A DNA stretch of 64,000 nt, from NCBI GenBank assembly GCA_046563655.1, contig CM102287.1, positions 1,612,001 to 1,676,000 on the forward strand, given 5' to 3'. Made by a program: the position numbers and the translations under genes. The notes under the pieces are model-generated. The model was not told the origin of the DNA and made no database searches. It worked only from the letters and a program-made list of their open reading frames with translations. Source of the DNA: Yuukianura sp. NJ FZ-2021 (taxonomy: Eukaryota). Below are positions 42,373-64,000 of the stretch, one piece after another (position 1 is the stretch's first letter; the number at the start of each line of letters is the position of its first letter).

Positions 42373-42432
42373 GTTAATGCTTTGATTTTACCAAAGGTAA
42401 CAGGTACATTGCCATCATTTCAAATTAATCCA

Positions 42433-42872: not shown

Positions 42873-42905
42873 CCCTTCTCAAACAAGAATATGTTACCTG
42901 TAAAT

Positions 42906-44564: not shown

Positions 44565-47485
44565 TTTTCCAGTTTTAAATGTTGCACTAGAGTTGGTTGT
44601 TGTCGCGGACTCTGGAGTAGAACTGACAGTGGTTTTCAAAATTTTCCTTTTTACTGCATGTGCATAGGATGTGGGATGTTCATCAAGTCCCATTAACTTT
44701 CTTTTTCTCAGAAAAGTTTCTTTGTTTACTGCCTTGGTCAGGATATCCGCCGGTTGAACACTATCAGGAGTGTGCTGTAACGTGACCAACTTTTTGTCCA
44801 TCAAGTTGCGTATGTAGTGATGGCGGATGTCAATGTGTTTTGTCTTGTCATGATATTCTGGATTTTTGGCCAGTTTAATAGCACTCTGGGAATCAGTTTG
44901 AATGACAACTTGCTCTTGAGGATGACCACATTCAGCCAAAATGTGTCTCAAGCCAGATAGATTCTTTTCCGGCATGAGACAGAGCAATGTACTCTGCTTC
45001 AGTGCTAGATAACGCAATGCATGTTTGGCGTCTGCTTAGCCAGATAATGGGTGCTTCATTTATGGTGAATAGACAACCCGTAGTTGACTTTCTTGTGTTG
45101 ATGTCTGAGCCATAATCTGCGTCAACATAACCGTCCAATGTCAAGGTCGAGTCCTTTTTATATTCTATGGACAAGTCTGCTGTCCCTTTTAGATATCTCA
45201 GAATGTTTTTGGCGGCTTCCCAATGATCTTTGTCATAGGCGCCAAAGAAACGTGACAAATAGTGAACATTGTATGCTATGTCTGGTCTAGTACATCTAGC
45301 CAGGAACAATAAAGATCCTACTAATTCCTGATATTCAAAGTCTGAATTGCCTTTTGTCTCTGCTGTTTTAAGTTGTAAACCAGGACTCATTGGAATGTTA
45401 AGTGGTTTACAATTTGGACATATTGAATCCTTTCCAACATAGATTCAATGTACCTTTTTTGACTGATAACAATGCTATTTTTCTTTTGTTTGATCTCCAT
45501 GCCAAGAAACTTGGTCAAGTTTCCAACTGTCAATTTAAAGACATTTTGTAATCTCCCTAGGATTTGTTGATTTTCCTTTTTGTCATTTCCCATAATTATG
45601 CCGTCATCGACATAAATTATGATGAAAGTAATTTTGTTATCCTGTGCTCTCTTGTAAACGCAATAATCCGACGTGAGAGCTGAAAAACCTAATTTTTGAA
45701 GTTCGTTGTTCAAAGTATTATTCCAGCACCGGGGCGCTTGCTTGAGTCCGTACAAGCCCTTCTTAAGGAGACAGACTAAACTCTCTCCTTTAATGCTAGT
45801 ACCTTGAACTTCGAAACCTTCAGGTTGCTCCATGTATATTTCTTCGTCTAAATTGCTATTCAAGAAGGCTGTGGCAATATCGAATTGAATCATATCCCAG
45901 CTTTCTTGAGCAGCTAGAGCCAGCATTATTCGAATTGTTTCATAACGACAAACCGGGGCAAAAGTTTCTTCGTAATCGACCCCTTCTACTTGATTAAAGC
46001 CTTTTACTACTAATCTGGCTTTATATTTTTCAATTGTTCCGTCAGGGTTGGTCTTAATGCGAAATACCCATCGATTTTTGAGTATTTTCCTTTCCAAGGG
46101 TCTTGATACTAAAATCCACGTTTTGTTTTGGAGTTGACTTTTGAACTCATCTTCCATTGCCTGTTTCCATTCGTCAGCTTCTTGTGTTCGAATGGCCTCT
46201 TTGTAAGAGTTGGGAACAGTTTGTTGTACAAACATTTGGAATTTTGAATTTTTGGCCTGCAAGCGAGCGGACCTGCGCAGTGTGTTTTCAGTACTACCAG
46301 CAGTAGTATTAACCGTTGCGTTAAGAGACTCATTGTCATGCGTGAGTTCCGGTGTCATTTCGACTGAATTATTTTCAGTGTCCGATTTGATTTGTAAATT
46401 TTCAATATTTACATAATCACAATCCGTGTTAAATTTTTTGTTTTCTGCGGGAGAAACAATTCTGTATTCTCCTGTCAAATCCTTCCTTAGAACAATTTTA
46501 TTGCTGTCAGGTTCAGATTTTGACGTATCCATTGAATCAATTTTTGTCTCTGGTTTTGGAAGTGTCTCTATTGCGGTGATATCTTCTTGGAAGATATTTC
46601 TGATTTTGATTTTTTCGACCTTTTCGTTAAATGACACGTGCTTTGTTTGTTCAAAGTAAACTCGATTTTCTGGACTGTAGAGCCTATACAAATCGTTGGC
46701 GGAGTTGTACCCCACCAGAATGCATCTTGTTGCTTTCTCTTCCCACTTGTTTGCGTTTGTCATTTTATGAGCGAAAGCTTCGCATCCAAAAGTCTTGACG
46801 TGATGTAATTTTGGCTTTTTACCAAAAATCATCTCATACGGCGTTTTGACTTTATTGCGGGAAGATAGAGTTCTATTCAGAAAATAGACTGCGGTTTTTA
46901 CCGCATCTTCCCAGAAAGTGTCATTTAGATTTGCCTCTATTATCATTGTACGAGATGCATCCTGAATGGTTCTGATGTCTCTTTCGATAAAACCGTTGCT
47001 CGCGCTTGAGTAAGGAGCATTTGTGCCCAACTGTATTCCCTTTTGGGACACAAACTGTTTTAACTCCTCATTAATTATTTCAGTGCCATTGTCACTCCGA
47101 ATGACTTTGACATGATTTCCCGTTTGATTAGCGATAAAGTGAACAGCGTCCTTAATATTTTTCACTGTCTCATCTTTAGTCTTCTGCGCATAAACTTGCC
47201 TGAAGTTGCTTGCCTGATCTTTAATGACTAGGAAATATTTATTTCCCTTTTTGGAGGTGGTATTTGCGTAACCCAGATCAAGGTGAAGACATTCACCCTC
47301 TTTGAAATTGCTTTCCGTCTGGCTGGATTTATATCCCTGTTTCTTTGATTTTCCCAAAAGACAGGAGTCACAAGTAAAATCTTCCTCCTTCATTTGCTCT
47401 AAACCAAGAGCAGCTTCTTTCTCTTTTGTCAATTTTAGAAATTCACCATTAATATGGGCAAGGCGCTTATGCCATGTTACTTCTT
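44565..47485 (-). pseudogene. pol: Copia Pol (integrase, RT, RNase H) split by single-base frameshifts near 45420 and 44950
   Basis: WHKRLAH...CDSC, LHLDL, IRSDNGTE, NGFIER, KYKARLVVKGF, YVDD, GYVDADY, SSTEAEY, KHIDIRHH, ADILTK. Confidence 0.95.
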
Positions 47486-48829
47486 TTATGCAGGTAAAAG
47501 CATGTTTTCTTTTATGGGCTTGAATTTCATGATTTGAAGCCCGTCCTTCCGAACGGCCTCAAGATCCGGCTCATTGTTCCAAAAGAACGTTATGTCCCCA
47601 AATCTATTTTTCATTACTTCAAAACCTTTTTCCAGAAGCACGTTTTCTGAAACTAGGTTTACGCCTTGGGGAATGTAATCCACGTTATGTAGTTCAATTT
47701 CCTCCCATCTTCCTTGTTTGTACGCATTTACTTTGACCGTGCCAAAGCCCTCAGCGTAACTGCACGTATTATTTGCCATATGAATTTCTTTGGGTTTCTC
47801 ATAGACTGTGAAATCTGAGAACCATTCTCGATTTCCACAGTAATGTTGATCTGCGCCAGAATCGTTTATCCATTGTTCTGCTAGATCGTCGCTCTGCCAT
47901 ACCATGTAGGCATTTCTATCTCTGTTTTCCCGTTTTCCCTGATCATTGGGTTTCCAATTTGGGTCTCGTTTATAGGTCCCTGTGTACGGGCGTATTTTTG
48001 TACCCTTAGGGATATTTTTGTATGAGACTGGAGTATTTTTATGAAAACAGTCTCTTGCCCAATGCCCCTTCTTGGAGCAAATTCTGCAAATATCATTTGA
48101 CTTGTCTTTGCGGTTGTTAAATTTTCCTTCTTTACCTTCATTAGAAAAGAAGGATTTTGATGCTGACTCATCAGCCTGTTTTTCTTTAGGTTGCTCTAAA
48201 TCCAAAGCTTTAAGTCGTGACAGGAGATTTCCTGTCGTTCTCCTTGAACTTTCGACCGACTTCCAAGCTTCCTTAAAATGCTTGTATTTGTTATCGTCCA
48301 AACTGGTGATAACTCTTGAGACTTCAGACTCCTCGTCTACGACGGAGCCTAATGACCTCAATTGAACCGCAAGGTTTTGGATTTCAATCATTGCCTGAAG
48401 AGCGCTTTTTTCGCTGCTTGTTTTGACGTTATAGAATTTTTGCCAGAGCAGTCCTTTTGACTCTCCGCTTACGTCTTGATGAATTGTTGCCAGTTTGTTC
48501 CATGCTTCTGCAGCAGTGGAACAACTTGCAATGGAACTTAGCTCTTTGTCCTTAATGCAAAGATAAATGCAACTTATTGCCTCGTTATTATGCTTGTCCC
48601 ACTTGCTCTGGTCAACGCCTGCATTTGCAGGTCTTGGCGTAGTCCCATTGACTACCTTCAAAATGTCGTGTGCTCTAAACAAGCTTTCTAACCTCAGCTT
48701 CCACGTTATGTAATTGTCTTCGTTAAGTTTTGTAATGGAATCAGTATCGAATTTTTTGTTTAAAAAATGGTAACTTGTTACGGTCTCACCGGGCACAGCT
48801 ACAGATGATTGGTTAGAGTTGGAGGCCAT
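47486..48829 (-). CDS. gag: Copia Gag plus protease; frame break near 47500 before integrase
   Basis: KLNEDNYITWK, zinc knuckle CRICSKKGHWARDC, protease WINDSGADQH. Confidence 0.93.
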   Translation of the reverse strand: MASNSNQSSVAVPGETVTSYHFLNKKFDTDSITKLNEDNYITWKLRLESLFRAHDILKVVNGTTPRPANAGVDQSKWDKHNNEAISCIYLCIKDKELSSIASCSTAAEAWNKLATIHQDVSGESKGLLWQKFYNVKTSSEKSALQAMIEIQNLAVQLRSLGSVVDEESEVSRVITSLDDNKYKHFKEAWKSVESSRRTTGNLLSRLKALDLEQPKEKQADESASKSFFSNEGKEGKFNNRKDKSNDICRICSKKGHWARDCFHKNTPVSYKNIPKGTKIRPYTGTYKRDPNWKPNDQGKRENRDRNAYMVWQSDDLAEQWINDSGADQHYCGNREWFSDFTVYEKPKEIHMANNTCSYAEGFGTVKVNAYKQGRWEEIELHNVDYIPQGVNLVSENVLLEKGFEVMKNRFGDITFFWNNEPDLEAVRKDGLQIMKFKPIKENMLLPA

Positions 48830-48906
48830 GGCGTCTTCTAAGCTGGCTGGATTCTTCTAGAATGGACTCTTTTGGTAGATCGTCAAGATCGCGTAGATCG
48901 TGTAGA

Positions 48907-48920
48907 TCGTGCTGATAACG
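48907..48920 (-). promoter_or_regulatory. Copia primer-binding site CGTTATCAGCACGA, probable half-tRNA-Ile primer
   Basis: Directly abuts the 5' LTR and lacks TGG; the plus strand TCGTGCTGATAACG resembles the recalled tRNA-Ile(AAT) anticodon arm with G at the wobble position. Confidence 0.65.
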
Positions 48921-49360
48921 TGTTGAAAATTGCTAATAAACTCAGTCGTATAAATCACTTTTGGATTTTGAAGTTTTATTTATTTGAACAATAAACTTGT
49001 AGTTTCTACGAGGCACCACTGACGCTTTTTCCTATCTAGATCACTTGTATTTATATGGCTACACTAACCTTAATTTTAATATTAGTCACTGACCTAGTGT
49101 CCTTGACAAAAACGATTTCCTACGTATTTTCTTAGAACCTACGTCAACTATGACTTTTCCTTGTCCTTGTCTATTATGTTATTGTAAACTAAATGAGGTG
49201 ACTTAATTACCTACTTTATAATTAGTTTACCAATTCCTGTTTTGCTCCTTAACCTAATTTACATTCACGTCAATAGTGACAGATGTCCTAATTCTAATTC
49301 ATTATTCTGACGCATATTCTTGTTTGTATGATTTAATCTATTCTAACCATATTTTTAACA
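48921..49360 (-). repeat. Copia 5' LTR
   Basis: 440-bp direct repeat of 42433-42872. Confidence 0.96.
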
Positions 49361-52300
49361 ATCCAAGTGATTGGACATTCTTGGACGAATTGAAGTTGGC
49401 CGATCCGGAATTCTACAAACCAAATGACATTGACATTTTGATTGGAGGAGAATTCGTGGCTCGTCTCAAAACTGGTAAAAAGGTTCAAGGAGACCTTAAT
49501 CATCCAGTAGCAGAAGAAACAGAACTCGGTTGGGTAATTTCCGGTCCAGTCAAACCAGGCCGTGTGGTGAGTGTGAACCACGCTTTAGTGGAAACTAATC
49601 AGATTTTGCAGAAATTTTGGGAATTGGAGAATGTCCCACACCACCAGCCACTGACAACAGAAGAGAAAGCCGCCGAGGCACATTTTGTAGCCACTCACTC
49701 CAGAAATGACGACGGAAGGTATGTTGTCAAGTTACCATTTAAACAGAATTGCCAAAATTTAGGTTCATCCCGAGAAATAGCCCTGAGACGGCTGTATGGA
49801 ATTGAACGGAGACTAGAAAAACATCATGAACACAAGGTCGAGTACCGTAAGTTCATGACTAATTACATTGAACTTGGTCACATGGTCCAGGTTCCCAAGT
49901 TGGGGGCAGGTGAGGTGATGGGAGTAACCAATTATCTTCCACATCACTTTGTACTAAAGGATACCAGCTCCACTACCAAATTGAGAGTCGTGTTTGATGC
50001 ATCTGCAGGAACGAGCAATGGAATCTCGTTAAACAAATGTCTAATGGTTGGTCCAACCGAACAAAAGGACATATTCTCACATTTGCTCAGTTTCAGGTCA
50101 AAGGCCATTGCTCTAAAGGCGGACATAGTGAAAATGTACCGTCAGTTTCTTGTTCACCCATTGCACCAAGACAAACAACGGATTCTCTGGAGAGACAGTC
50201 CGAATGATGAGATTCAAGAATACAAATTGACTACAGTCACCTATGGCACAAGTTCAACGCCTTTCCATGCTGTCAGGTGCTTAAATCAACTTGCTGAGGA
50301 TGAGGGACTTAAATACCCACGAGCAGCAGAGGTAATCAAAAATGATTTTTATGTTGATGATTTACTAACAGCGGTGGATACTTCAACGGAGGCCAGTCAG
50401 TTGATTGCTGACTTGACCAGTATTCTGAGCCTTGGATGCTTGGAAATATCAAAATTCGATTCGAACTCAAGAGAGGCACTTAGAGATGTTCCTGAGGACA
50501 GGAGAGGCAAGAATGACAATTTCAGTGACCTTGACGTGGACAGGGTCTTAGGAGTCTGCTGGGATTCAAATGTCGATGAATTCCACTTTCGTGGATTCTC
50601 GTCTCAGCCAATTGGAATCCTAACCAAACGAATCATTTTGTCTAATATTTCTCGTGTTTTTGATCCTCTAGGATTTTTAAGTCCTCTAACTGTGATCATT
50701 AAGATTTATTTTCAGGAATTATGGGAGCATGATCCACAGGGGTCAGAAGCTCAAATGGGATGACGAGATCCCAACTCAATTACAACAGCCGTGGAGAGAG
50801 TACATTGACGGGTTAAGTAAAATTAAATTGATTAAAATCCCCAGATTCTTAGGATTAGGTGGGGCCAGCCAAGTGGAAGTTCATGGATTTTCGGATTCAT
50901 CTGAACATGCCTACTGTGCTGCAGTCTACATCAGATGTACTTTCCCAGACGGATCAATTTCTACGAACTTAGCAGCAGCGAAAACGAAAGTGGCTCCTGC
51001 TAAGCAAGTCAGTCTCCCAAGATTGGAACTCTGTGGAGCACTTCTGCTGTCAAGGTTGATTCCCAAGGTAATGGAATCACTTAATCTAAAATGTTCTATT
51101 TCAGCTTGGTCAGACAGTGAAACTGTTCTGAAATAGATTCGGAATTCATCTCGTCGCTTCGTCACATTCGTTGCGAACCGAGTTGCTGAAATACAGGAAG
51201 TACTACCAATGGAATCCTGGAACTTCGTACCAGGAATAGAAAACCCGGCTGATCTTGGCACTAGAGGAATCTGTGCAGAGGATTTGGCCAATTCATCATT
51301 TTGGTGGAAGGGACCATTGTGGTTAAGTGACCCAATGATACCTAATTTTGAGCCAGGGGGCAAGGTGAGTGAGCCTCCTGACTTAGAATTACGAAAGGTA
51401 AAGGTTAATTTGTCAATTGTGGAATTAAATTTCATGTTGAGGTTTTCAATCCTCATGAGGCTTAATCGTGCAGTGGCATATGCCACAAGATTTATATTCA
51501 ATTGTAGGAACAAGAAGTTGGGTCAAAGTCACACCGGAGACTTGACGGTAGCAGAAACTCACTCTGCATTCATGGTTTGTGTCAGATCCGCCCAATGGGA
51601 TGACTTTTGGGAAGAGATCACATTACTAGAGAAGGGGAAACCAATTGGTAAGAGTAGTTCCATAAGTTCACTAAATCTGTTTCTAGATCAAGAAGGTGTA
51701 CTGAGAGTCGGAGGCAGACTCCAGAATTCGGAAGCTCCAGATGAGCAGAAACACCAAATAATCATCAGTGGACATCATTACTTAACACAATTAATCATCA
51801 TGGACTACCACCGTAAGTTTCATCATGCCAATTACCAATTGCTCTGGTCCAATCTGTCGAGAAGATTTTGGATCATTCGTGCCCGAGTGGCCATTCGGAA
51901 CATGATTCGGAGCTGCCTTCGTTGCAAGAGAATGAAGGCTAAGATCACAGAACAACTCATGGGTAGCCTGCCCAAGGCCAGAGTCACTCCTTCGTCACCA
52001 TTTAATCACTGTGGAGTTGACTATGCTGGACCGACTAAGCTCCAAGAAAAATACGGACGTGGGAAACGACAATTCAACGCCTATTTTTGCATCTTCGTTT
52101 GTTTCACCACCAAAGCAGTTCACCTTGAGCCGGTGACTGATCTTACTACAGAGGCTTTTATAGCCACTTTGAAAAGATTCATTTCCAGGAGGGGCCTGAG
52201 TACTAATATTTATTCTGATTGTGGATCTAATTTTGTTGGTGCTGCTAATGAGTTAAAGGAGTGGCACTCAATTATCTCAAATTCTAAAGTATTTGATTTT

Positions 52301-52954
52301 TTGTCTTTTCAGGGTATTCAGTGGCATCTGAATCCACCCGATGCACCCCACATGGGAGGAATCTGGGAAGCAGGCGTGAAGTCTGCCAAATATCATATTA
52401 AGAGGGTCGTGGGAACAACTACATTGACCCTGGAGGAGTACTATACACTGCTGAGCTCCGTTGAAGCTGTTCTCAATTCTCGTCCCATTTGTGCTAAGAG
52501 CCAGGATCCAGGAGACTACGAGGCACTAACTCCAGGCCACTTTCTTATTGGAAAGCCTCTCATGTCAGTTCCGGAACTGGATCTACGAGAAATCAAGGAG
52601 AACCGACTTTCCCGTTGGCAGAGAGTCCAGCAGATGACTCAACATTTTTGGAAGCGCTGGAGCGCAGAATACATCAATTCACTCCAACAGAGGAACAAGT
52701 GGAAAACCAAAGATGACAATTTGAAAATCGGAGATCTCGTGCTGATAAAAGATGAAGATACTCCGCCTCTGAATTGGAAATTAGCAAGGATTTCAGCTGT
52801 ATTCCCCGGTGAAGATGGGCTTGTTCGTACTGTGGAAGTTACTTGGAAGTCAGCTGAGCTAAATCACAAGGGTGAAATCATAAAACAGAAAGAGCATGTC
52901 TTCAAACGTCCAATCGTAAGAATCTGCAAATTATTAGACAAGGAAGATTTGTAA
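49361..52954 (+). pseudogene. pol: BEL gag-pol part 2: RT, RNase H, integrase; frameshift near 50730 and premature TAG at 51134-51136
   Basis: LADPEF, KLRVVFDAS, ADIVKMYRQ, YVDD, FSDSSEHAY, LPRLEL, GVDYAGP, YSDCGSNF, WEAGVK, FWKRW (DUF5641-like). Confidence 0.95.
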
Positions 52955-53947: not shown

Positions 53948-54845
53948 GAGCATTATTTTGATAATGAAAATGAAAACCATTTGATAATAGTAAACATCAA
54001 AGGTAAATAGGTAAAAAGAAAGTAAAAATGAGAGAGAAAAAAAAAGAGAAACATTAAATGAACTTCCTACTAGGTTGCTTGTTGTTTTCTTTCGTGAGGA
54101 CGTCATTTTCTTGTATCTTCAGAAACTGTTTGTGTATGGCCGCTTTGAACGCTCCTTTAGTTTTGAGTTCCGTCGTTGCTTTTGGCAAGTAACCCCATAG
54201 TAGTTTCGTCTTTGATTTAAAAGAATTAGGAGTGATTGTTGTGTTCCTGGAGTGAATCATTTTTCGTGTTCTTAAGCCGGCTTCTTCTTCGGTGTCGTGC
54301 AAGTATTTCTCAAAATATGGAATGCTACGGTTGTTGAGGATATCAAATGCATGAAGTAGTACCATCATGTTGTGTTGATGAGTAGGGAAGAGCCAACCAA
54401 GTTCCTTTGTGATCCGTAATTTCACTTTGTCGTATTTCTTGCTCTTGAGAATAAAGTGACCCGCCGTGCGTACTATTTTTCCGCTGATTTCAGTTGTACT
54501 TTAGTTGCGCTACCCCATATTTCAGCCATGTACCAAAGCTTAGACAAAACGTAAGATGTCATCAGAGTTTTTCGGTTGTCTTGTGTAAGAAGTCTTTGCA
54601 TAGGGTAGTGTGAGAATATGATTTTTAAACATTTCTTTGTTGTGTTCATGATATGTGAATCTCACTTCAAGCAACCGTCTATGTTAAGGCCGAGGCTGGT
54701 GAGTGTTTCTGTTGTTCCGACTGTTACATTCTGAAATTGAAACTGCACTCCTTGAATTATATTCCTTATCTTCGGTTTTGCCACGATGAGGATTCCAGTT
54801 TTCTCAGGGTGAATTGTGAATCCGTTTTTTTGTGAATCCGTTGTG
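53948..54845 (-). mobile_element. LINE copy 3, main portion
   Basis: Continues copy 3 after the BEL TSD; same 5' junction as copies 1 and 2. Confidence 0.9.
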
Positions 54846-55983
54846 AATTGTGATCCAACATAGCCCAGAATGACTTCTTTGTCACTTTTTTTTGCGAAAA
54901 AATTGAATTTTTTGCGAAAAAATTGAATTTTTGGCGAAAAAATTGAATTTTTTCACCAAAAATTGAGTTCTAGGCACTTTATGTGGTGATCCGACTTAAA
55001 TTTTCGGATTGCAATATTGTGATCCACCATAGCCCAGAATGACTCCTTTGTCACTTTTTTTGCGAAAAAATTGAATTTTTTCACCAAAAATTGAGCTCTA
55101 GGCACTTTATGTGGTGATCGGACTTAAATTTTCGGATTGTAATATTGTGATCCAACATAGCCCAGAATGACTTCTTTGTCACTTTTTGGTGAAAAAATTG
55201 AATTTTTTCACCAAAAATTGAGTTCTAGGCACTTTATGTGGTGATCGGACTCAAATTTTCGGATTGCAAAATTGTGATCCAACATAGCCCAGAATGACTC
55301 CTTTGTCACTTTTTTTTGCGAAAAAATTGAATTTTTTCACCAAAAATTTAGTTCTAGGCACTTTATGTGGTGATCGGACTCAAATTTTCGGATTGCAAAA
55401 TTGTGATCCAACATAGCCCAGAATGACTCCTTTGTCACTTTTTTTTGCGAAAAAATTGAGTTCTAGGCACTTTATATGGTGATCGGACTCAAATTTTCGG
55501 ATTGCAAAATTGTGATCCAACATAGCCCAGAATGACTCCTTTGTCACTTTTTTTTGCGAAAAAATTGAATTTTTTCACCAAAAATTGAGTTCTAGGCACT
55601 TTATGTGGTGATCGGACTTAAATTTTCGGATTGTAATATTGTGATCCAACATAGCCCAGAATGACTTATTTGTCCCTTTTTGGTGAAAAAATTGAATTTT
55701 TTCACCAAAAATTGAGTTCTAGGCACTTTATATGGTTATCGGACTTAAATTTTCGGATTGAAAAATTGTGATCCAACGTAGCCCAGAATGACTTTGTCAC
55801 TTTTTGGTGAAAAAATTGAATTTTTTCACCAAAAATTGAGTTCTAGGCACTTTATGTGGTGATCGGACCCAATTTTCGGATTGCAAAATTGTGATCCAAC
55901 ATAGCCCAGAATGACTCCTTTGTCACTATTTTTTGCGAAAAAATTGAATTTTTTCACCAAAAATTTAGTTCTAGGCACTTTAT
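54846..55983. repeat. Satellite segment (same family)
   Basis: About 9 monomers; shares variants (GATCCGACTT, GAGCTCTAGG) with 37568-38363. Confidence 0.97.
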
Positions 55984-56390
55984 TGTAGAGCCACGGTTTT
56001 CCCCCATTAGGTTAGGGTCAGTTACCCCTTGAGGTTAGGGTGTGGCCTTAGGTTAGTGTAGTTAGGTTATGGTTTAGTCTTAGCGTTTAGTTGAGATTGA
56101 ATTAGCGCTTAGCGCGAGTTTTGAGTAGAGTTAGCGTGGTAGAGGAGAGTCAGGAGAGTATTGAGACTAGTTGTGCTAGTCAGTCGGTTTTTGGTGTTCG
56201 TCTCAGCATGAGCTGAAGACTTTGTATCATTTGTACAAATAAATATATTTTATATTTATTTGTCTCTGTGTCTTCGTGTTGTTTCTTTGGTGTCCCTTAT
56301 GGTCCTCAGTTTTGTGGCATGAGTCCGGCAGTGCTCGGATCGTAGTCTGGAGGCCATCTTTGGCAGTTTTACGTAGCACGAGGTGCTACA
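55984..56390 (+). repeat. Gypsy 5' LTR (407 bp)
   Basis: TGTAG...CTACA terminal inverted repeat; repeated from 63696. Confidence 0.93.
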
Positions 56391-56392
56391 CA

Positions 56393-56402
56393 TGGCGACC
56401 GT
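56393..56402 (+). promoter_or_regulatory. Gypsy primer-binding site, probably tRNA-Arg
   Basis: TGGCGACCGT two bases after the LTR; resembles the recalled Arg PBS of 412/mdg1-type elements. Confidence 0.7.
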
Positions 56403-56630
56403 TTTGTGAGTGTTACTGCTGAGGTCAAAGATCACAATGGTGTAACAACACATGGTGAGTGTTTAAAAACTTTTATTCTGTCAAGTGGGATCAAGACATC
56501 ATGTAAATGTTCGTGAGTGGACGTTACCCTTGGTCAAAAGGGAAGTGGCCATAATTCAGAAGTGGATCATCTGTAAATTCTGTACATAGAAGGAGGAAGT
56601 TGCCGAAACAACTTCCACTGGATCCACTCC

Positions 56631-58164
56631 ATGTCAGACAAAAAACCAGTAAGTAAAGAATTGAAAAATCTTGAAATTGATCCTACAGTGACATTTAAGC
56701 TACCAGAGCTTAGTCCAACATCAGATTCGGAAGGACCATTCCTCCGAAGTCAAGAAAGTAAGATTCCGACTCCAAGTACATCCCCAAAAATCATTGTCAG
56801 TGCTCCAGGTTCATCAGTAACCATGGCAACGTACACCAAGGAGGAAGTAGAAGATTTAGTGGCCGAGGCCGTGGCCCATGCCGTGCGCGGCGTGGAGCAG
56901 AGATTAGTTCAGCGGGTGACCGGTGGAGTCGCTGCGGTGACTCCAGCCCCTGCGGAGGCAGATCCAGTTGGTCAGACCCAAGCATTGATAACAGCATTGA
57001 AAAGCATCAAGTTCACATCATTATCATCTAAATTGCCTGTGCCGAGTTTTGATCCAAAGAAGATGTCAGCGGCAGGCTACCTTAATGAAGTAGAGCGTTA
57101 CTTCACTGCTCAAGGACACGAGCAGAGGCAGTTTCTTTATCTTGTGAAGACGGTCTTGCCAGTAGAATCTCAACCATGGCTAGACCACATCCTAGTGACA
57201 GTGACGGACTGGGATTCATTCAAAGACGCATTTATCAGCAGATATGATAATTGGATGGACGTGGCAGACCGAACGAGGCTTCTGCACACAAGAAGACAAC
57301 AGTTCAACGAGTCTGTTGAATTTTATTTGTATGATGTGGTTCGGTGCTCCAGATTAATTTATCCACATGAGTCAGTGGCTGATGCAGTGTTACGTGCTAA
57401 ATTAGGTTTGAATCCGAGGATTCGCACAGCCCTAGGAACTCAACAGTTTGACACAGTGGAATCACTTTTTGATGCATGTAGAATTGCTCATGCTAATCTC
57501 ACAGCAGAAGACAGAATCACAAAAAAACAAATTCGGATTACCTCCAATTGTCAAGGTCGACTCAAAGTCAGAGTCAGTCAAGAAAGATGATAATTCCACT
57601 AATTCAAATGCTGGAAGTTCTGCTGGAACTTCCAATGGAAATAATTGGTTTCGTGGGAAGGAAGCTAAGAATAATGGCTTCCGTGGAAACTGGAAAGGCA
57701 AGGGAAATGGCTACAAGAATCATTCCAGTGATCAGTCCCCGACTAGTGGAAGTAATGGAAGTCCGAACAGTGGACATTCCTCATCTCAACCTAATGACCA
57801 GTCACAAGGTCAAAGTTCAAAATCCAATTATGACAAGAATTCAGTGCAGCCTCAAAATGAATCATCTGCACGTGGGAAGGGCGGTTACCGTGGTAATCGT
57901 GGTTCTTCTAATGACAACGACCGAGGTGGTGGTCAAGGCAGAGGTCAAGGTCAGACCTCTAGGCAAGATTTAAGTGATGTTCAGTGCTTCAAGTGTAATG
58001 GTTTTGGGCATCGTAAGTTTCAGTGTCCATCAGGTGTTGGTTTGGCCTTAGGGTCATTTCAAGAGGAGGTCCCTCAAGGACCTCCAGTTCCAAAAAAGAA
58101 GAAGGAGCCACCTGAAAAAAATGAAGCGTCGACTTCTAATGAGAAGTTAAACGCGCAGTGGTGA
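56631..58164 (+). CDS. gag: Gypsy Gag (capsid, Gly/Asn/Ser-rich linker, CCHC knuckle); broken by one extra A in the A run near 57521
   Basis: PSFDP...YLNEVERYF...WDSFKDAFISRY...RRQQFNESVEFY; CFKCNGFGHRKFQC; the two ORFs join if one A is removed. Confidence 0.9.
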
Positions 58165-61100
58165 ATGAGAAGTCGTCCATCATTCACCCTACCTTAGTTC
58201 AAGTTTCGGACGATTTAATTCCTTTTGTGACTGTGGCGAATGAAGATTCGAAATTTTTGGCTATTTTCGACACGGGATGTTCGCAGTCACTCATTGATGT
58301 ACAGTTATGTGAAAAGTTGCAGTCAGTTGTAGTTCCGTTAAAAAATAAGTCTACAACGATGATGAATAGTCAGAAGCTGCGTCTCATTGGCTTCTGTTTT
58401 GTGTATATAAAAATTGGTGGTCGAACTTTCAAGTCAAAGTTCTATGTGGCGGAGGGTTTGCCAGTTAAGTGTGTGTTAGGTTCTGATTTTTGTTTTCAGA
58501 ATGACATTGTAATTAGATTGAAAAGTAAGGAGTTTTGGTTTGGTGACAATGGAAGTCAGAAGTTCAAGTTGACTTCCACTACAGAAACAACCGGTACTGC
58601 GTTGTTTTCAGTGGCTTTACCAGAAAGTCATAATCAAGATAGTGAAGTGAAAGTGAGAGTTCAGCGTGTCCTAGAGAAATTTCCAACGGTCGTCCGGAGT
58701 GATGGAAAGTTGGGAAGGACGGACCTGACTCATCATGTCATAGAAGATGAAGGGTGTCCACCGGCAAGGAACCCTTACAGAAGGTCACCAGAAATGCAGA
58801 AGATCATCAATGATCAAATTCAAGAAATCTTGAAGGAAGGTCTAATCAGACCTTCAAGGTCACCGTATGCAGCTCCAGTTGTGGTAGTACCAAAGAAAGA
58901 CGGCAGTAAGAGACTCTGTGTGGACTATACGTTGCTCAACCAGCAAACGAAGACAAATGCTGCGCCTATGGAAAGTGCTCATTCCATTTTACACACAATT
59001 CCTGCTGGTTATTGGTACACAGTGATTGATCTTGCGAAAGGATATTGGCAAGTCAAGTTGCATCCGGACAGTGTTGAGAAGTCAGCATTCGTGACTCAAG
59101 ATGGTCATTACGAGTTCCTAGTGATGCCATTCGGATTAAAGAATAGTCCAAAGACGTGTCAGCAGTTGATGCGGAAAGTCATCCAAGGATTCTCCAAGTT
59201 TGCAAAGTGCTACATGGACGATATCATTTTGTTCAGTAAGACTCTGGATGAACATTTAGTGCATTTAGAAAAAGTGCTGAGTAGGTTGAAGATGGCGGGA
59301 CTCACCATTAGTCCTCAAAAGTTACAGTGTTGTAGGAGAGAGGTTGATGTGTTGGGCCATCGTTTGACAGAACATGGTCTACAAAAGTGTCCTAAGAAAG
59401 TGAGTGCCATAGTGGATTTCCCTACTCCAAAGAACGTCAAAGAAGTGCAAAGTTTCCATGGAATGACTCAGTGGTATGCTCCGTTTATTGAACATTTTGC
59501 TGCAAAGGCAGAGCCACTGTACCGACTTCTACGGAAGAACCAACCGTGGGTTTGGGGAGAAGAACAGGAGACGTCGTTCCAGTCATTAAAAGAGTCAATG
59601 TGCAACGATGTGATGTTACATGCAGTTGACTACGACCATCCGATTTTGTTAAAGTGTGATGCGTCGAATTATGGGTTAGGTGCGGCCTTAACTCAAGTGA
59701 TTAATGGTGTGGAGAGACCAGTGATGTTTATCAGTAAAACACTCCGAAAATCATAAAATTCGGTACCACATTTACGAAAAAGAGTTGTTCGCGATTATTT
59801 GGGCCTACCGGAAGCTCAGAGAATACATTGAAGGTCAGAAGTTCACAATCATAACTGACAACAAAGCCTTATCATTCCTCAACAAGATGAAGGAGCGGAA
59901 AGCAAAATTGGCTTTGTGGGATACGGAGATCAAGTCATGGGGTGTCGAGATCAAGCATCGCTCCGGGAAGGATAATGTGGAGGCGGACGCGCTTTCACGT
60001 GCTCCAGTTCCTGTCGATGAAGCGGATCTCGATTTTGAAGATGATTCCCCGGCGTACATGTACTCGCCAACTGCAGTGGCGTTACTGTCGTTTGATACTC
60101 CTACGATCCAGAGGATGAAAGACGAACAACGAAAGGATCCTGATTTAGTGAAAGTGATCAGTGACATTGAAAGTGGTAAAAGTGTTAAAAGTTACGTCCT
60201 AAAGAATGGCGTACTAGGCAGAGAAGTCAAAGGATTTGACTTCTATTCCGATAATGGTTTCTGCGGAGACATTATCGAGGGGCGATGTGCGGAAACGAGG
60301 CCTCAATCTTCCGACATCACTCTAGAGGACGTTGACGAAAAAGAGTTCAGCAGTTCCTCAGCTCGTAAAAGTGAGCTCATTCAGGTGCCAGTGGTACCAA
60401 GGGTCATGATACCCGAAATAATGAAGTTACTACATGATGTGCCAGAAGCAGCGCATCTTGGCATCAAAGCCACAAAAGTGAAAATCAAGAGAAGATTTTT
60501 CTGGAAAAATATGAATAAGGACATCAGTGATTATGTAAAATCGTGTCCAGTTTGCCAAGCAGTCAAGTCTTGCAACTACAAGCCCTTTGGATTATTACAA
60601 GCAGTGTCACCTCCAACTAAAGTGTTTGAGAAGATCTATATTGATTTTCTGGGACCACTGCCAAGATCTTCAAGTCAAAATGAGTATTTGTTCGTCGTGG
60701 AAGACGATTTATCCAAGTGGGTGGAGTTATTCCCGATGCGGAAAGCAAAATCGAAAAAAGTTGTGGAAGTGTTAGTGGATGAAATTTTTTGTCGTTATGG
60801 TACTCCGAAAACAGTTGTGTCGGACAATGGAAGCCAATTTCTCTCCAAAGTGATGATTAAAATGGCTAAGGACTGGAAGATCAACCATGTTCCTGTTAGT
60901 CCGTACCATGCGCAAGCTAACACAGTCGAAAGGGTCAATCGGAACCTTAAGCCTATGCTCCAGGCTTATGTCGACAAGAATCATAGATCATGGGACCAGC
61001 ATCTCCAGAAGTTCGCGTTGGCTCTTAGAACTTCTGTACATTCGACTACTAAAGTGACTCCTGCGTTACTAGATTTAGGTCGTGAGATTCCGCTGCCCCT

Positions 61101-61605
61101 TGATAGGAACTTACAAAGTGATGGTGACAGGGAAGTCCGGAAGTCAGGACTTCTACCTGCTCAATTGGACGAAATCATTCAGTTCGTGAGGAAGAACATG
61201 GAAGAAGCACATGAGCATAATATCAAGCATTATGACTCTAAACATCAAGAAGGAAACTTTCAAGTTGGTGATTTAGTGCTTATTAAAAATCATTCGTTGT
61301 CAGACAAGAAGAAAGGCATTGCAAAAAAATTAGACCCTCGTTACATTGGTCCATACCAAATTAGTGAAGTGTTAACCCCAGTGACCTTCAAACTTGTGAC
61401 ATTGCCTGAAAAAACTAATTTTGGAAAGCGTCATGTGTCGGAGTTGAAGCCTTATACTGTTCGCACGTCGCAGTTTGCGGTTCCGAAAATTCCCACTAAG
61501 TCAGAGGATTGGTCGGACTCGGAGGAGGAAGCGAACTCTGGAGGAAGAACTTTGAGGAAAAAAGTTCGGCTCAACTATCGCACACTCGCTGGATACAGAA
61601 ACTAA
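58143..61605 (+). CDS. pol: Gypsy Pol (PR, RT, RNase H, integrase with GPY motif); one frameshift near 59754
   Basis: IFDTGC, RLCVDY, IDLAKGYWQ, MPFGLKNSP, YMDD, CDASNYGLG, EKELFAI, TDNKAL, H..H..CPVC, IDF, SDNG, VERVN, YIGPY. Confidence 0.95.
58146..58188 (+). promoter_or_regulatory. Putative -1 ribosomal frameshift signal between gag and pol
   Basis: G_TTA_AAC in the gag frame, 7-nt spacer, stem GGTGAATGA/TCATTCACC; pol is in the -1 frame and opens only after TGA at 58140-58142. Confidence 0.75.
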
Positions 61606-61653: not shown

Positions 61654-63684
61654 GTGACTTCCATCATGCCATCATCAATTGTTAGTGATGTGGTTCCAGT
61701 CAGTGGAAAGAAAAAGAAAACTCAAGATTACTGGAAGAAGAGACGTGAGTGCGAATTGAAGTATGGTATCGCTGCTAAGAGTCCACAGGAACGTAAGGAC
61801 ATGTTTTTAATTGAGTCGGCTCAACGGAATTCATGGGATGAATTTCCGTACAAATATCATCCTCATACGTCGTTAGTGAAAGTGTTTCGGTTGTGGGATG
61901 CAGTCATGGAGCCGTCTAAGGAACAAATTGCTGACCAGAGATCACATGTTCCAATTCGCATTATCGATACAGAGGCTAAGTTCATGGTTATGCTTGGTTT
62001 GTTGAGAGCCGAACGAGTTATAAGTGTGGACATGGAGTTTAGTCATGACAAAGGCTATCGTGATCGTTATGTTTGTTCCTTGCAGATATCGACCAAGGAA
62101 TCGGATTTCATCATTGATCCATTCGTAGTGCCAATCCAGATGCAAATGTTGCGGGAAATCTTCTCCAATGGTAACTACATCAAGATTCTGCATGGATGTG
62201 TTAATGATATCCTCATGTTCCAGCTTCATTACCATATCTTCTTCGTGGGTGTAATTGACACTCAAATCGTGGATTCTGTCTTTGGAGGGACTCAAGGACG
62301 TGGATTGGACAAAGTGATTAGTGACTACTTGCCTGGTGTGAAAGTGAGCAAGGATTGTCAACTTGCTGATTTTAGGATTCGTCCTATTCAGAACATGCAT
62401 CCAGACATGATTCAGTACGCCAGGAGTGACACACATTTGTTGTTACGTGTGTTTGAAGTCATGAAAAAACGTTATGACTTCAAAAGTGAAAGTGTTAAGT
62501 GGAATGAAGTTGTCAAGTTGTGTAATAATTTGTGCTTAAAAGTCTACAAGTTTAAGCCTAATCCAAGTGCCCGTGAGATTCTGGCTAAAGTGGACATGCC
62601 CACTTTAAGTGTAAGTGTGATGGAGCAAGTTGTCGGCTGGAGAGACATGGTTGCCAGGGAGATGGACGTTCAACCAAAGGAAGTCATTGCTGATGTTACT
62701 TGTGCTCAATTGGTCAAGGAAGGGCCTAAAAATAGGTTGGACATTGAAAAAGTGATTGGCAAAAATGTTTTGTCATCGGGTCATTTGGATATGCTAGTTG
62801 AAGTTTTTGTGTCTACTAAAAGTGTGGGTGGAGTCACAGAAGTTGCTGCTACAACTTCTACAGTGCAAAAAGTGACTTTGGACTTATCGGTGTTTGATTG
62901 GGATACACCAATCACTAAAGAAGATGTAAAAAGAATGGAACAGGAAGTTGTTCAATCAACTTCCAAAAGTGTAAATTTTCCTGCTACAGTGCCTAAAGTA
63001 CATTTGGATTTGTCTGTTTTTGACTGGGATACGCCAGTCACCAGAGAGGATATTGCCAGGATGGAGGCGGAAGTTGGTAAAACAACTTCCCAAAATGTAA
63101 ATATTCGTGCTCCAGTGCCTGTTGACATTGATGGTTTATCGGATGTCTCCGATCTCTCAGAAGTTTCTGATGAACCATTGGAGGAGGAAGAAGAGGAGTC
63201 TCAAGTGGAAGTTGAGTGCAACGTCCAGAAATTTAGTGATAGTGATAATGGTGACATGCTGATTGTCACCGTCTCGGAAGATGATCTGCGTGAGGTGGTA
63301 GGAGTACCACCAGAAGATGTTCCGAATGTGGTTTACGAACCACAAGTACCAGAGGAAGATCCCCAGGAAGTGATGGCTGCGATGGAGGAGGAGCCCCAGG
63401 AAGTAGTAGCTGCAGCCGAACGAAGAGATCGGCGAGATCGCCGAAACTGTCCCCATTGTGGAAGCGAGCGGCATACTGACGTGATGTTTTGCCGATTTCG
63501 TGATCTGCCAGAACCAGAAGCGAGAAGACGTCACCGCCGCCGGCGTCTCAATATGAATCGACGCCGAAATCTTCGTATTCGTGCTGAGGAGGAGCGTTTG
63601 CGACGAGAAGCGGAACGTGCAGCCCGAGAAGCAGAGGATGATGGAGATCGTGTCCCGAGGAATGCCCCGGAACCCGATCTTTAG
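61654..63684 (+). CDS. RRP6: Retrotransposon-borne RRP6/EXOSC10-like DEDD-Y 3'-5' exoribonuclease with HRDC domain and extended C-terminus (first ATG at 61666)
   Basis: ExoI SVDMEF, CSLQISTKESDFIID, ExoII KILHGCVND, QLADFRIRP, ExoIII YARSDTHLLL, HRDC-like GWRDMVAREMD; no stops, no introns. Confidence 0.92.
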   Translation: MTSIMPSSIVSDVVPVSGKKKKTQDYWKKRRECELKYGIAAKSPQERKDMFLIESAQRNSWDEFPYKYHPHTSLVKVFRLWDAVMEPSKEQIADQRSHVPIRIIDTEAKFMVMLGLLRAERVISVDMEFSHDKGYRDRYVCSLQISTKESDFIIDPFVVPIQMQMLREIFSNGNYIKILHGCVNDILMFQLHYHIFFVGVIDTQIVDSVFGGTQGRGLDKVISDYLPGVKVSKDCQLADFRIRPIQNMHPDMIQYARSDTHLLLRVFEVMKKRYDFKSESVKWNEVVKLCNNLCLKVYKFKPNPSAREILAKVDMPTLSVSVMEQVVGWRDMVAREMDVQPKEVIADVTCAQLVKEGPKNRLDIEKVIGKNVLSSGHLDMLVEVFVSTKSVGGVTEVAATTSTVQKVTLDLSVFDWDTPITKEDVKRMEQEVVQSTSKSVNFPATVPKVHLDLSVFDWDTPVTREDIARMEAEVGKTTSQNVNIRAPVPVDIDGLSDVSDLSEVSDEPLEEEEEESQVEVECNVQKFSDSDNGDMLIVTVSEDDLREVVGVPPEDVPNVVYEPQVPEEDPQEVMAAMEEEPQEVVAAAERRDRRDRRNCPHCGSERHTDVMFCRFRDLPEPEARRRHRRRRLNMNRRRNLRIRAEEERLRREAERAAREAEDDGDRVPRNAPEPDL

Positions 63685-63695
63685 AAGGAGGAAGG
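63683..63695 (+). promoter_or_regulatory. Gypsy polypurine tract
   Basis: AGAAGGAGGAAGG directly before the 3' LTR, overlapping the ORF3 stop codon. Confidence 0.85.
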
Positions 63696-64000
63696 TGAAG
63701 TGCCCCGGTTTTCCCCCTTTAGGTTAGGGTCGTTTGCCCCTTGAGGTTAGGGTGTGGCCCTAGGTTAGTGTAGTTAGGTTATGGTTTAGTCTTAGCGTTT
63801 AGTTGAGATTGGTTTAGCGCTTAGCGCGAGTTTTGAGTAGAGTTAGCGTGGTAGAGGAGAGTCAGGAGAGTATTGAGACTAGTTGTGCCAGTCAGTCGGT
63901 TTTTGGTGTTCGTCTCAGCATGAGCTGAAGACTTTGTATCTTTTGTACAAATAAATATATTTTATATTTATTTGTCTCTGAGTCTTCGTGTTGTTTCTTT
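63696..64000 (+). repeat. Gypsy 3' LTR (partial)
   Basis: Aligns to 55984 onward with roughly a dozen differences; starts TGAAG rather than TGTAG. Confidence 0.92.

Follow-up and report, generated by a model that had tools for sequence, protein, structure and literature searches.

An Rrp6-type exonuclease gene carried behind pol by a Ty3/Gypsy retrotransposon lineage

Results

A Ty3/Gypsy element at the end of the window

The window, that is the whole 64,000-nucleotide stretch of DNA from Yuukianura sp. NJ FZ-2021 that we analyzed, holds an LTR retrotransposon, all features of which lie on the forward strand. The two LTRs both begin with TG and are 96% identical where they pair (55984-56283 and 63696-63995); the 3' copy (63696..64000, from this pairing) runs past the end of the window. 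A 127-nt satellite ends at 55983, directly before the 5' LTR (55984..56392). Because the 3' LTR stops at the window end, we placed the 3' end of the 5' LTR at ...ACA, before the TGG at 56393. This TGG opens a candidate primer-binding site (56393..56404), proposed from the sequence itself rather than from a tRNA match.

The gag gene (56631..58164, ORF list) has a candidate CCHC knuckle, whose Pfam zf-CCHC match in the window (E 7e-4, 20.0 bits) falls under the 20.8 cutoff, and in this copy it is split into two overlapping frames (56631-57590 and 57472-58164). In relatives gag is a single ORF of 504-531 aa. The pol gene (58359..61605, Pfam) encodes reverse transcriptase and RNase H (58359-59756), then, in another frame of the window copy, integrase with SH3_Tf2-1 (59757-61605). 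Its Pfam matches are RVT_1 (2e-32), RT_RNaseH_2 (2e-17, breaking off at profile position 67 of 100), Integrase_H2C2 (2e-20), rve (5e-14) and SH3_Tf2-1 (2e-9). Length differences between the window and contigs of sequencing runs occur at two places, both within A-runs: at 57521 in gag and at 59755 in pol. Protease was seen in three of the related elements described below (L002, L004 and L013). The order of reverse transcriptase, RNase H and integrase is that of Ty3/Gypsy (Metaviridae), and the element is therefore a Ty3/Gypsy LTR retrotransposon. It is multi-copy in the run contigs, which cover 30/30 bins of the element in organism A and 29/30 in organism B.

A third open reading frame between pol and the 3' LTR

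Behind pol lies ORF3 (61666..63684), which encodes an Rrp6-like nuclease of 672 aa from its first ATG according to the ORF list, Pfam, the PDB sequence search and Foldseek. Pol ends with a TAA at 61603-61605, 60 nt before this ATG, and two more in-frame stops can be read between them. The original prediction of an uninterrupted ORF starting 48 nt past the pol stop is borne out by the ORF list. The frame is indeed open from the proposed start at 61654, but this position is an in-frame GTG, four codons 5' of the ATG, so that 672 of the 676 codons remain when the ORF is counted from the ATG. The catalytic residues, numbered D126, E128, D185, Y255 and D259 from 61654, are accordingly D122, E124, D181, Y251 and D255 here. 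At the other end, the ORF3 stop (TAG, 63682-63684) overlaps the polypurine tract, a purine run read directly from the sequence (AGAAGGAGGAAGG, 63683..63695) that adjoins the 3' LTR. ORF3 hence fills the space from 60 nt past the pol stop to the polypurine tract, within the LTR pair, and the earlier description of a Gypsy element with a nuclease ORF in the env position, inside the LTRs, holds. A 672-codon open frame with the domain scores given below is far beyond chance.

This arrangement could be dismissed if a host gene merely neighbored a retrotransposon, or if the assembly were chimeric. We found nothing in favor of such an explanation, and it is contradicted by the LTR pair and by the overlap of stop codon and polypurine tract. 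In an environmental relative, L002, the ORF3 homolog (6108-7757) likewise lies between repeats (1-162 and 7996-8157) that are 99% identical. In addition, contigs of four runs span the pol-ORF3-LTR stretch, and none of the 14 joints listed in the run contigs removes ORF3. We regard this explanation as practically out of the question.

The pol and ORF3 frames coincide in the window, where three in-frame stops intervene, and in the related element L001; by coordinates compared by hand, they differ in L002, L004 and L013. Reading through the pol stop thus cannot serve as the general way to express ORF3.

The core of ORF3 is of the Rrp6/EXOSC10 type

The DEDD-Y 3'-5' exonuclease domain (EXO) of ORF3 spans aa 98-269 (61957..62472) and matches DNA_pol_A_exo1 (PF01612) with an E-value of 3.8e-28 (98.9 bits). 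All five predicted catalytic positions are present and line up with the canonical Rrp6 rows of our alignment, and the Rrp6-type motifs that had been pointed out (LQIST..DFIID, QLADFRIRP and YARSDTHLLL) are all found in the translation. An HRDC-like helical domain follows at aa 318 to ~387 (62617..62826), as had been proposed. In the window its Pfam match (aa 318-365, 19.8 bits) remains under the 23.8 cutoff, although the structural model and Foldseek agree on it. The same domain scores above the cutoff in the ORF3 of L001 (37.2 bits) and, in another Pfam scan, in 6 of 12 relatives.

Profile, PDB sequence and fold searches all recovered the RNase D/Rrp6 fold. Among the 16 PDB sequence matches, 13 are Rrp6/EXOSC10 (E 3e-27 to 9e-22), and the phmmer alignment to yeast Rrp6 extends to aa 358. 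The AlphaFold model has pLDDT values of 84-98 over aa 21-380, with the helices of the HRDC region (aa 316-387) at 89-97 (10-residue block means in both cases). With this model as a query, the best 12 chains listed by Foldseek are all Rrp6/EXOSC10 (E 7e-21 to 1e-17), with TMt of 0.63-0.71 for structures of the catalytic core and ~330 columns aligned to the EXO and HRDC cores. ORF3 is thus an Rrp6/EXOSC10-type catalytic core composed of a pre-EXO stretch, a DEDD-Y EXO domain and HRDC. The suspected absence of PMC2NT (PF08066) is confirmed at the level of Pfam, which returned no match in the window ORF3 at E<=0.01, nor in 18 relatives scanned at E<=0.001. Residue 53 of ORF3 pairs with residue 247 of full-length human EXOSC10.

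The C-terminal half carries a zinc knuckle and a basic helix

All alignments of ORF3 to Rrp6 chains end at or before query aa 358. Judged by sequence comparison, the tail that follows is without likeness to that of Rrp6: it consists of an acidic, fast-changing linker, then a knuckle, then an Arg/Lys-rich tail. The absence of the exosome-associating C-terminal region of Rrp6 is only inferred, because this region is poorly conserved in sequence. The knuckle is of the CCHC type (aa 595-609, 63448..63492, CPHCGSERHTDVMFC; regular expression and alignment). A C-terminal CCHC knuckle was found by regular expression in 18 of the 25 element-borne proteins that we collected and in none of 129 canonical Rrp6. 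The last spacer of the window knuckle is one residue longer than in 13 of these 18, which have 14-residue matches. Behind the knuckle, the model predicts an Arg-rich helix (aa 618-661, 63517..63648) with pLDDT of 87-96 over aa 621-660 (10-residue block means). The fraction of K+R is 0.33 in the window tail and 14-42% in the tails of the element proteins. Neither the knuckle nor the basic tail had been mentioned in the original prediction. ORF3 has no env-like membrane segment: Kyte-Doolittle means over 19 residues peak at 1.34, and this peak falls inside the EXO core.

The acidic linker contains a 126-nt tandem duplication (62858..63120; TRF period 126, 2.1 copies, 77% matches) with FDWDTP in each unit, and W[DE] occurs there twice, at aa 412 and at aa 454. 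Motifs of this kind can bind kinesin light chain. The linker might recruit a host transport factor, with the nuclease fold serving mainly as an RNA-binding scaffold. The distribution of the motif fits such a trafficking adaptor, as it occurs in the linker of 13/25 element proteins (12/18 of those with a knuckle) compared to 15/129 canonical tails. The motif is short, however, the linker is acidic anyway, and 6 of the 18 full-length members do without it. Given that the retention of the catalytic residues would also be left unexplained, we rate an adaptor role as very improbable.

ORF3 is inherited by a lineage of elements

A profile search started from a 6-row alignment returned related loci in metagenomes, of which we kept 80. 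Five of them (L001-L004 and L013) have Gypsy pol directly upstream of the nuclease on the same strand, and in L002, L004 and L013 gag, pol and ORF3 are all open. Named members of the group come from two Collembola, Orchesella dallaii and Allacma fusca. In an O. dallaii gene model (P0007) the integrase C-terminus is fused to the exonuclease, and the integrase part is 32% identical to aa 398-528 of the window pol (E 2e-21). The family thereby points to a source of misannotation, as springtail gene models in the databases name these ORFs exonuclease-domain or HRDC-domain proteins, one of them fused to an integrase tail. Two metagenome loci (L005 and L007) encode the nuclease without a knuckle and without pol upstream. 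Word-index protein searches gave two matches on two occasions and none with region 20-420, and we used a full HMMER scan instead. A search of viral contigs yielded 37 pattern matches, none of which was confirmed.

The same pol-ORF3 layout in springtail genomes and in environmental DNA indicates a conserved accessory gene rather than a one-off accident. Among the five elements the integrase is 43-53% identical and ORF3 28-35%. The gene belongs to a Ty3/Gypsy lineage as an integral accessory and is inherited within it. LTR elements can acquire host sequences through template switching, and a processed EXOSC10 mRNA could in principle have been copied into a single element, to decay there as a neutral passenger. 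Two signs of such an event had been named beforehand, namely that other copies of the family lack ORF3 and that ORF3 is nearly identical to EXOSC10. Instead, five further contigs carry pol and ORF3 in the same order, as do the springtail gene models, the best library match in the full HMMER scan is only 36% identical, and no canonical Rrp6 among the matches listed exceeds 35%. ORF3 is moreover open in all eight DNA copies examined, while the gag and pol of the window have frame changes. Among L004, L005 and L007, pN is 0.22-0.25, far under a saturated pS of 0.80-0.90. We report pN and pS rather than dN/dS because every one of the 21 pairs is saturated at synonymous sites (pS 0.79-0.90). The recurring gene order, the low identity and the open frames contradict a one-off retrocopy, which we consider extremely unlikely.

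The catalytic core is retained and the tail diverges

In an unrooted FastTree phylogeny, one branch separates the 25 element-type proteins from 129 ordinary Rrp6 (SH-like 99), and IQ-TREE with LG+C20 returned the same unrooted split on 23 versus 40 rows (SH-aLRT 99). Branches are long in both trees and the two groups were defined before tree building; in neither tree do element-borne proteins group with cellular Rrp6 rows.

The five catalytic residues are all kept in 22 of the 25 element-borne proteins, which are 19-35% identical to the window protein. The three exceptions are L002, an element whose LTR ends are 99% identical and whose three ORFs are open, with a G at the E124 position; P0012, with four of the five catalytic positions changed and the knuckle kept; and P0036, with an E at D181, the only one of the 25 with E at the third position. 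Because of these three proteins, catalysis may not always be important. Copies of the element differ along ORF3. Pieces of the C-terminal half in contigs are 11-15% different from the window. When differences were classed from 40 of 882, a small and selected sample, 5/6 of those listed in the EXO-HRDC part were synonymous, and 5/7 of those in the C-terminal half were non-synonymous. By these comparisons the C-terminal half of ORF3 changes fast.

The exceptions bring in a role independent of catalysis, in which the ORF3 protein would act as a decoy: by sequestering substrates or cofactors of Rrp6, it would protect the RNA of the element against surveillance in the nucleus. Such a protein could well do without both exosome-docking parts, as ORF3 appears to, and catalytic residues are missing from L002 and P0012, whose frames are open and whose knuckle is kept. 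Against it stand the conservation of the active site in the large majority of such diverged proteins and the mostly synonymous differences listed in the catalytic part. A decoy is therefore improbable.

Discussion

A probable free-standing exonuclease acting for the element

Rrp6 binds Rrp47 through PMC2NT and the exosome core through its C-terminal region. Since both PMC2NT and the exosome-docking region seem to be lost, the ORF3 protein should act free-standing. It would be a distributive 3'-5' exoribonuclease that the knuckle and the basic helix bring to RNA or to the ribonucleoprotein of the element, where it would trim the 3' ends of RNA or degrade them, in the element's favor. This general mechanism, of a free-standing and RNA-tethered 3'-5' exonuclease working for the element, is in our opinion probable. 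As for the target, we would tentatively favor RNA that feeds host silencing, such as antisense or aberrant element transcripts and small-RNA precursors. This is a weak guess, prompted by the presence of DEDDy ORFs in retroelements that replicate in different ways (see below).

The nuclease might instead be a replication accessory that trims the element's own intermediates, namely the 3' end of the genomic RNA, the tRNA primer or cDNA ends, which we find possible if somewhat doubtful. RNase D/Rrp6-type enzymes mature the 3' ends of tRNA and other structured RNAs, and a gag-like CCHC knuckle could put the enzyme in the particle. However, to our knowledge most Gypsy elements replicate without an Rrp6-type enzyme. 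Primer trimming is not favored because the candidate primer-binding site starts with TGG, so that an untrimmed CCA end would fit. In bdelloid rotifers, where retroelements also carry DEDDy exonucleases, the authors propose 3'-end processing of element RNAs, in line with a replication role (PMC5408684). DEDDy ORFs were nevertheless acquired by LTR as well as Penelope-like elements, although the two replicate in very different ways, which suggests a shared RNA-level step rather than LTR-specific cDNA synthesis (PMC5408684). Targets other than silencing RNAs and replication intermediates account for whatever likelihood remains.

Taken to its full extent, the silencing reading would mean that a Gypsy lineage, old, widespread and at home in springtails and other small animals of soil or freshwater, made a weapon or tool out of the host's nuclear nuclease for RNA surveillance, stripping the parts that dock to the exosome, re-aiming the enzyme through the knuckle and removing RNAs that would otherwise initiate or direct silencing of the element. 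We hold this complete scenario to be rather unlikely as a whole. If the nuclease were an anti-silencing weapon, the knuckle-less L005 and L007, which lie outside elements, would be host re-domestications of a retroelement gene.

Comparison with known systems

Rrp6/EXOSC10, the 3'-5' exoribonuclease of the nuclear RNA exosome, shares with ORF3 a DEDD-Y EXO domain, the stretch before it and HRDC, and provides its best sequence and fold matches. ORF3 departs from it in having no PMC2NT, an unrelated tail that bears the knuckle, a separate group in the trees and a place in a mobile element. Bacterial RNase D also combines EXO and HRDC without PMC2NT and has a core of similar length, but its match is weaker than that of Rrp6 (E 3e-6 versus 3e-27 in sequence and 1e-13 versus 7e-21 in fold), and its second HRDC was not seen in ORF3. 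DEDDy nucleases of the Nibbler, Mut-7 and EXD type belong to small-RNA pathways, where they work on the 3' ends of small RNAs or take part in silencing transposons. They share the fold (Nibbler EXO, Foldseek E 3e-10), but are more distant than Rrp6, lack an HRDC match and are host genes. The env of errantivirus-like Gypsy elements occupies the same place as ORF3, between pol and the 3' LTR, but encodes a glycoprotein, whereas ORF3 is a predicted enzyme with neither signal peptide nor membrane segment. In arthropods, Copia elements reportedly took up a host methyl-CpG-binding domain (PMC6673714). As in ORF3, an arthropod retrotransposon there keeps a host-type domain from machinery that normally represses it; superfamily and domain are different, however, and the domain lies inside the polyprotein rather than in a separate ORF (PMC6673714).

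The closest precedent is found in bdelloid rotifers, where Juno and Vesta LTR elements and Athena/Terminon Penelope-like elements carry a DEDDy-exonuclease ORF (PMC5408684). In Juno and Vesta, as in the window, the place of env downstream of pol is taken by a third ORF, which encodes a DEDDy 3'-5' exonuclease and has no transmembrane segment (PMC5408684). The authors noted a Cys-His-Cys motif in some members, mentioned mut-7, and saw neither a clear relation of these ORFs to copy number nor a deviation from neutrality (PMC5408684). The bdelloid ORFs were identified by HHpred and called RNase D-like, have the motif DEED and stand apart from Rrp6 in the authors' tree, whereas ORF3 matches Rrp6 plainly (E 1e-27 to 3e-27) and has an intact DEDD (PMC5408684). 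The bdelloid paper does not use the term HRDC (PMC5408684), and in ORF3 the exonuclease is followed by HRDC, the CCHC knuckle and the basic tail. Hosts differ as well, being bdelloid rotifers in one case and, as far as they are named, springtails in the other, and the two groups are compared here by description only (PMC5408684).

Our literature search found no Rrp6-type version with HRDC and knuckle in an LTR element, the precedents being PMC5408684 and the reviews that cite it. Another paper, cited elsewhere for exonuclease domains of LTR elements (PMC5348765), contains neither 'exonuclease' nor 'DnaQ'. The original prediction, which knew of no characterized LTR family with such cargo, overstated the novelty, as a DEDDy ORF3 was already known from bdelloid LTR elements (PMC5408684). 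DEDDy exonucleases have been taken up more than once by very different retroelements. Those of bdelloids have diverged greatly and are difficult to study, and the family described here is a clearer case: it is plainly of the Rrp6 type, has an intact active site, a confident model and a new module of knuckle and basic helix, and its ORF3s are ~30% identical. Such a family makes it testable whether a piece of host RNA surveillance is used against that very machinery or for processing of the element's own RNA.

Position of ORF3 in the window element

ORF3, the third gene of the Gypsy element in the window, spans 61666..63684 on the forward strand and encodes 672 residues counted from the first ATG in the ORF listing. 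The original prediction had set its start at 61654, which is an in-frame GTG four codons before the ATG at 61666. The ORF itself is real, and because of this upstream start the residue numbers first assigned to it equal the ATG numbering used here plus 4. Upstream, pol ends at a TAA codon (61603-61605, forward strand), and we read two additional in-frame stops between this codon and ORF3 in the window sequence. The ORF3 stop (TAG, 63682-63684, forward strand) lies inside a purine run (63683-63695) adjoining the 3' LTR, in agreement with the claim that the gene sits inside the LTRs and terminates in the polypurine tract. The two LTRs (55984-56283 and 63696-63995) are 96% identical, the 3' copy being truncated at the window end. 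In the window copy the reading frame changes within gag, near 57521, and again within pol, near 59755. Each site lies in an A-run where the window and contigs of public runs disagree in length, so the frame breaks are either private to this copy or assembly errors.

The element is inserted at the border of a satellite array with 127-nt units. Since the 5' LTR starts at 55984, at the exact end of the array, the element sits in satellite DNA. The satellite, with a unit of 125-128 nt, occupies the greater part of the first 38 kb (66-38363) and reappears from around 54.8 kb (54800-55983). Six more long open frames (170-723 aa, on both strands) lie within 40344-50763 and are likely to belong to additional mobile elements inserted between blocks of satellite. 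A 581-aa ORF at 51209-52954 (forward strand) matches Integrase_H2C2 and DUF5641 (E 1.8e-34); it is probably part of a further retroelement, at its integrase end, and that element may be BEL/Pao-like.

The protein has an Rrp6-type core

Pfam returned a DNA_pol_A_exo1 match at residues 98-269 of ORF3 (E 3.8e-28) and an HRDC match of 19.8 bits, under the cutoff of 23.8, with no match to PMC2NT, the N-terminal domain of Rrp6. When ORF3 was searched against solved structures, 13 of the 16 matches were Rrp6/EXOSC10, with E-values of 3e-27 for yeast Rrp6, 7e-26 for Trypanosoma, 2e-22 for human and 3e-6 for E. coli RNase D. The aligned span covers residues 53-358. As residue 53 aligns with position 247 of full-length human EXOSC10, roughly the first 195 residues of the cellular enzyme are not represented in ORF3. 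The AlphaFold model, which rests on an 89-row alignment, has a mean pLDDT of 77.8 and 10-residue block means of 84-98 over residues 21-380. All of the best 12 Foldseek chains displayed for this model are Rrp6/EXOSC10; catalytic-core structures align over about 330 columns (TMt 0.63-0.71, E 7e-21 to 1e-17), followed by RNase D (1e-13) and the Nibbler exonuclease domain (3e-10). No membrane segments were found in the protein (hydropathy maximum 1.34).

These Pfam, solved-structure, AlphaFold and Foldseek results establish that the core of ORF3 is an Rrp6-type exonuclease domain followed by HRDC. The original observation is thus real and its structural reading right: profile, structure and fold searches all recover the predicted Rrp6 core, the quoted Rrp6-type motifs are present in the translation, and PMC2NT is absent, as had been suspected. 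ORF3 ends in a 310-residue tail unrelated to Rrp6.

Recurrence in other Gypsy elements

When 1.84 billion representatives were scanned in full by HMMER with ORF3 (E<=1e-3), 4336 matches were returned. The best, protein P0003, is only 36% identical (E 5.5e-70), and hence ORF3 or a close copy is absent from the scanned library. Among the best 150 matches, around two dozen share the ORF3 layout, with the match starting near both N-termini and a length of 247-810 aa; in the remainder it begins at their residue 90-350, as expected for full-length Rrp6.

A metagenome scan gave 577 pattern matches, 406 of them confirmed, and 80 loci were retained; we searched all 80 by tBLASTn with the pol of locus L004. 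In five loci (L001, L002, L003, L004 and L013) the exonuclease is immediately preceded, on the same strand, by a Gypsy pol. A sixth locus, L005, has a pol match, but from an unrelated Gypsy downstream, and the other 74 have no match to this pol. L002, L004 and L013 each carry three open frames, namely gag (504-531 aa), pol (1214-1259 aa, in the order PR-RT-RNH-IN) and ORF3 (501-550 aa, PF01612 at E 1e-26 to 1e-30). Terminal repeats that are 99% identical flank ORF3 in L002. In L001 an integrase precedes ORF3, whose HRDC match scores 37 bits, and L003 is a decayed copy.

The same arrangement reaches springtails, where the named proteins are P0007, P0046, P0155 and P0150 of Orchesella dallaii and P0062 of Allacma fusca. 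P0007 opens with the C-terminal part of an integrase (32% identity to residues 398-528 of the window pol, E 2e-21), so the pol-ORF3 order is present in an assembled springtail genome. P0155 (1386 aa), which falls in a common 90% cluster with P0046, starts with the exonuclease-HRDC part and is probably a merged gene model, because some 1000 further residues have no Pfam match. The public runs contain multiple copies of the window element in the organism coded A (30 of 30 bins covered; three runs, one sample), with hundreds of contig pieces at 85-100% likeness, and also show the element in organism B (29 of 30 bins).

L005:4372-9338 and L007:8385-12727 have a three-ORF block in common, with no pol upstream. 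Its first ORF is zinc-finger-like (26% identity between the two loci), the second is a nuclease of 373-378 aa with exonuclease and HRDC domains and no zinc knuckle (60-62% identical to L004 ORF3), and the third (377 aa, 50% identical) is hydrophobic at both termini and matches no Pfam family. The block may represent either domestication of an ORF3 or an element of a different kind. A different, second Gypsy lies at L005:9970-16701, with a pol 31-35% identical to that of L004 and its own 337-aa third ORF without Pfam match.

One lineage of element-type proteins

Before tree building, rows were sorted into 25 element-type proteins (the window, 7 locus ORFs and 17 library proteins) and 129 others. 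P0017 and P0025 were kept with the latter although their matches also start near the N-terminus. In an unrooted FastTree tree (154 rows, 533 columns) a branch with support 99 separates the 25 from the rest. The unrooted IQ-TREE tree (LG+C20, 63 rows, 452 columns; two short element rows and 89 others left out) has the same split with SH-aLRT 99. These trees, with many long branches, show one group of element-type proteins, without direction of transfer. The best-scoring ordinary Rrp6 proteins with names come from Rozella and Pelomyxa, and no close donor is visible among ordinary Rrp6 proteins. Among five elements, integrases are 43-53% and ORF3 cores 28-35% identical; ORF3 divergence, as judged from these identities, parallels that of the elements at a faster pace.

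The active site, predicted to be retained, is intact in the window (D122, E124, D181, Y251, D255), and all five residues are kept in 22 of the 25 element-type proteins. In the other three, L002 has G in place of E124, P0036 has E in place of D181, and P0012 differs at four of the five positions. P0012, a metagenome protein of 544 aa, has K, Q, R and F at these four positions and keeps HRDC (27.1 bits) and the knuckle; it is probably an inactive form.

The ORF3 frame is uninterrupted in all eight DNA copies. Synonymous sites are saturated in 21 of 21 pairs of ORF3 copies; in the closest trio, pN is 0.22-0.25 and pS 0.80-0.90. Of 13 ORF3 differences displayed between copies, six fall in the exonuclease-HRDC part (5 synonymous, 1 non-synonymous) and seven in the tail (2 and 5), a small, selected sample taken from the 40 differences displayed out of 882. 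Overall, ORF3 is the third gene of a conserved Gypsy lineage, a re-tooled Rrp6-type nuclease, and its sequences indicate one lineage under selection.

A tail with a zinc knuckle

Two features had escaped the original prediction, a C-terminal CCHC knuckle and a Lys/Arg-rich tail. The knuckle occurs in 18 of the 25 element-type proteins and in none of the 129 others, the seven without it being short or truncated forms. It sits after an acidic, variable linker, and the tail that follows it has 14-42% Lys+Arg. In the window the knuckle spans residues 595-609, with a last spacer that exceeds that of 13 of the 18 knuckle-bearing proteins by one residue, and the AlphaFold model shows the tail as a long helix (618-661).

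A W-acidic motif (W[DE]) is found in the linker of 13 of 25 element-type proteins, compared with 15 of 129 much longer canonical tails. A 126-nt tandem repeat at 62858-63120 duplicates this motif (FDWDTP, residues 412 and 454). Linker length varies among copies in public runs (joints 62556 to 62676 or 62743): of the 14 joints listed for these contigs, four alter it and none removes ORF3.

Possible function of ORF3

Rrp47 is the binding partner of PMC2NT, and Rrp6 docks on the exosome core through its C-terminal region. Nucleocapsid proteins and the TRAMP subunits Air1/2 bind RNA through their CCHC knuckles. Our proposal builds on an Rrp6-type core whose active site is intact, the lack of PMC2NT, and a new knuckle and basic tail, kept across deep divergence. 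The ORF3 protein would act as a lone, distributive 3'-5' exoribonuclease that its own tail would carry to RNA or to the element's particle. We tentatively lean towards RNAs feeding silencing as its target, because Penelope-like elements also took up DEDDy ORFs, as PMC5408684 describes, and their different replication mode points to a shared RNA-level step. Nearly as likely, ORF3 may trim the element's own intermediates. A strictly catalytic role is at odds with L002 and P0012, which lost catalytic residues and kept the frame and the knuckle.

Expression of ORF3 from a putative subgenomic mRNA is plausible. Read-through of the pol stop was ruled out as a general route because ORF3 is not consistently in the frame of pol, as worked out by hand.

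Comparison with known systems

ORF3 has the catalytic core of the Rrp6/EXOSC10 orthologue group, but it lacks PMC2NT and falls in a separate clade; for these two reasons we place the predicted protein outside the group. The closest precedent, from PMC5408684, is the DEDDy ORF3 of the bdelloid LTR elements Juno and Vesta and of Athena/Terminons. According to that paper, recognition of these ORFs needed HHpred, they are termed RNase D-like, have a DEED motif and separate from Rrp6 in the authors' tree. This description differs from that of the window ORF3, which is Rrp6-type and bears HRDC and a knuckle; the term HRDC has no occurrence in PMC5408684. That paper is cited in a review and in an opinion article. 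Our full-text literature search found no report of an Rrp6-type, HRDC- and knuckle-bearing ORF3, or of elements with such an ORF3 in springtails. The novelty suggested at the outset was overstated in view of the bdelloid precedent for DEDDy ORFs. This Gypsy lineage should interest those who study transposons or RNA decay, because with it the question of why retroelements carry such nucleases can be approached by experiment. LTR elements with a DEDDy ORF3 are already known, and the Rrp6-type version with HRDC and knuckle is a new variant of them.
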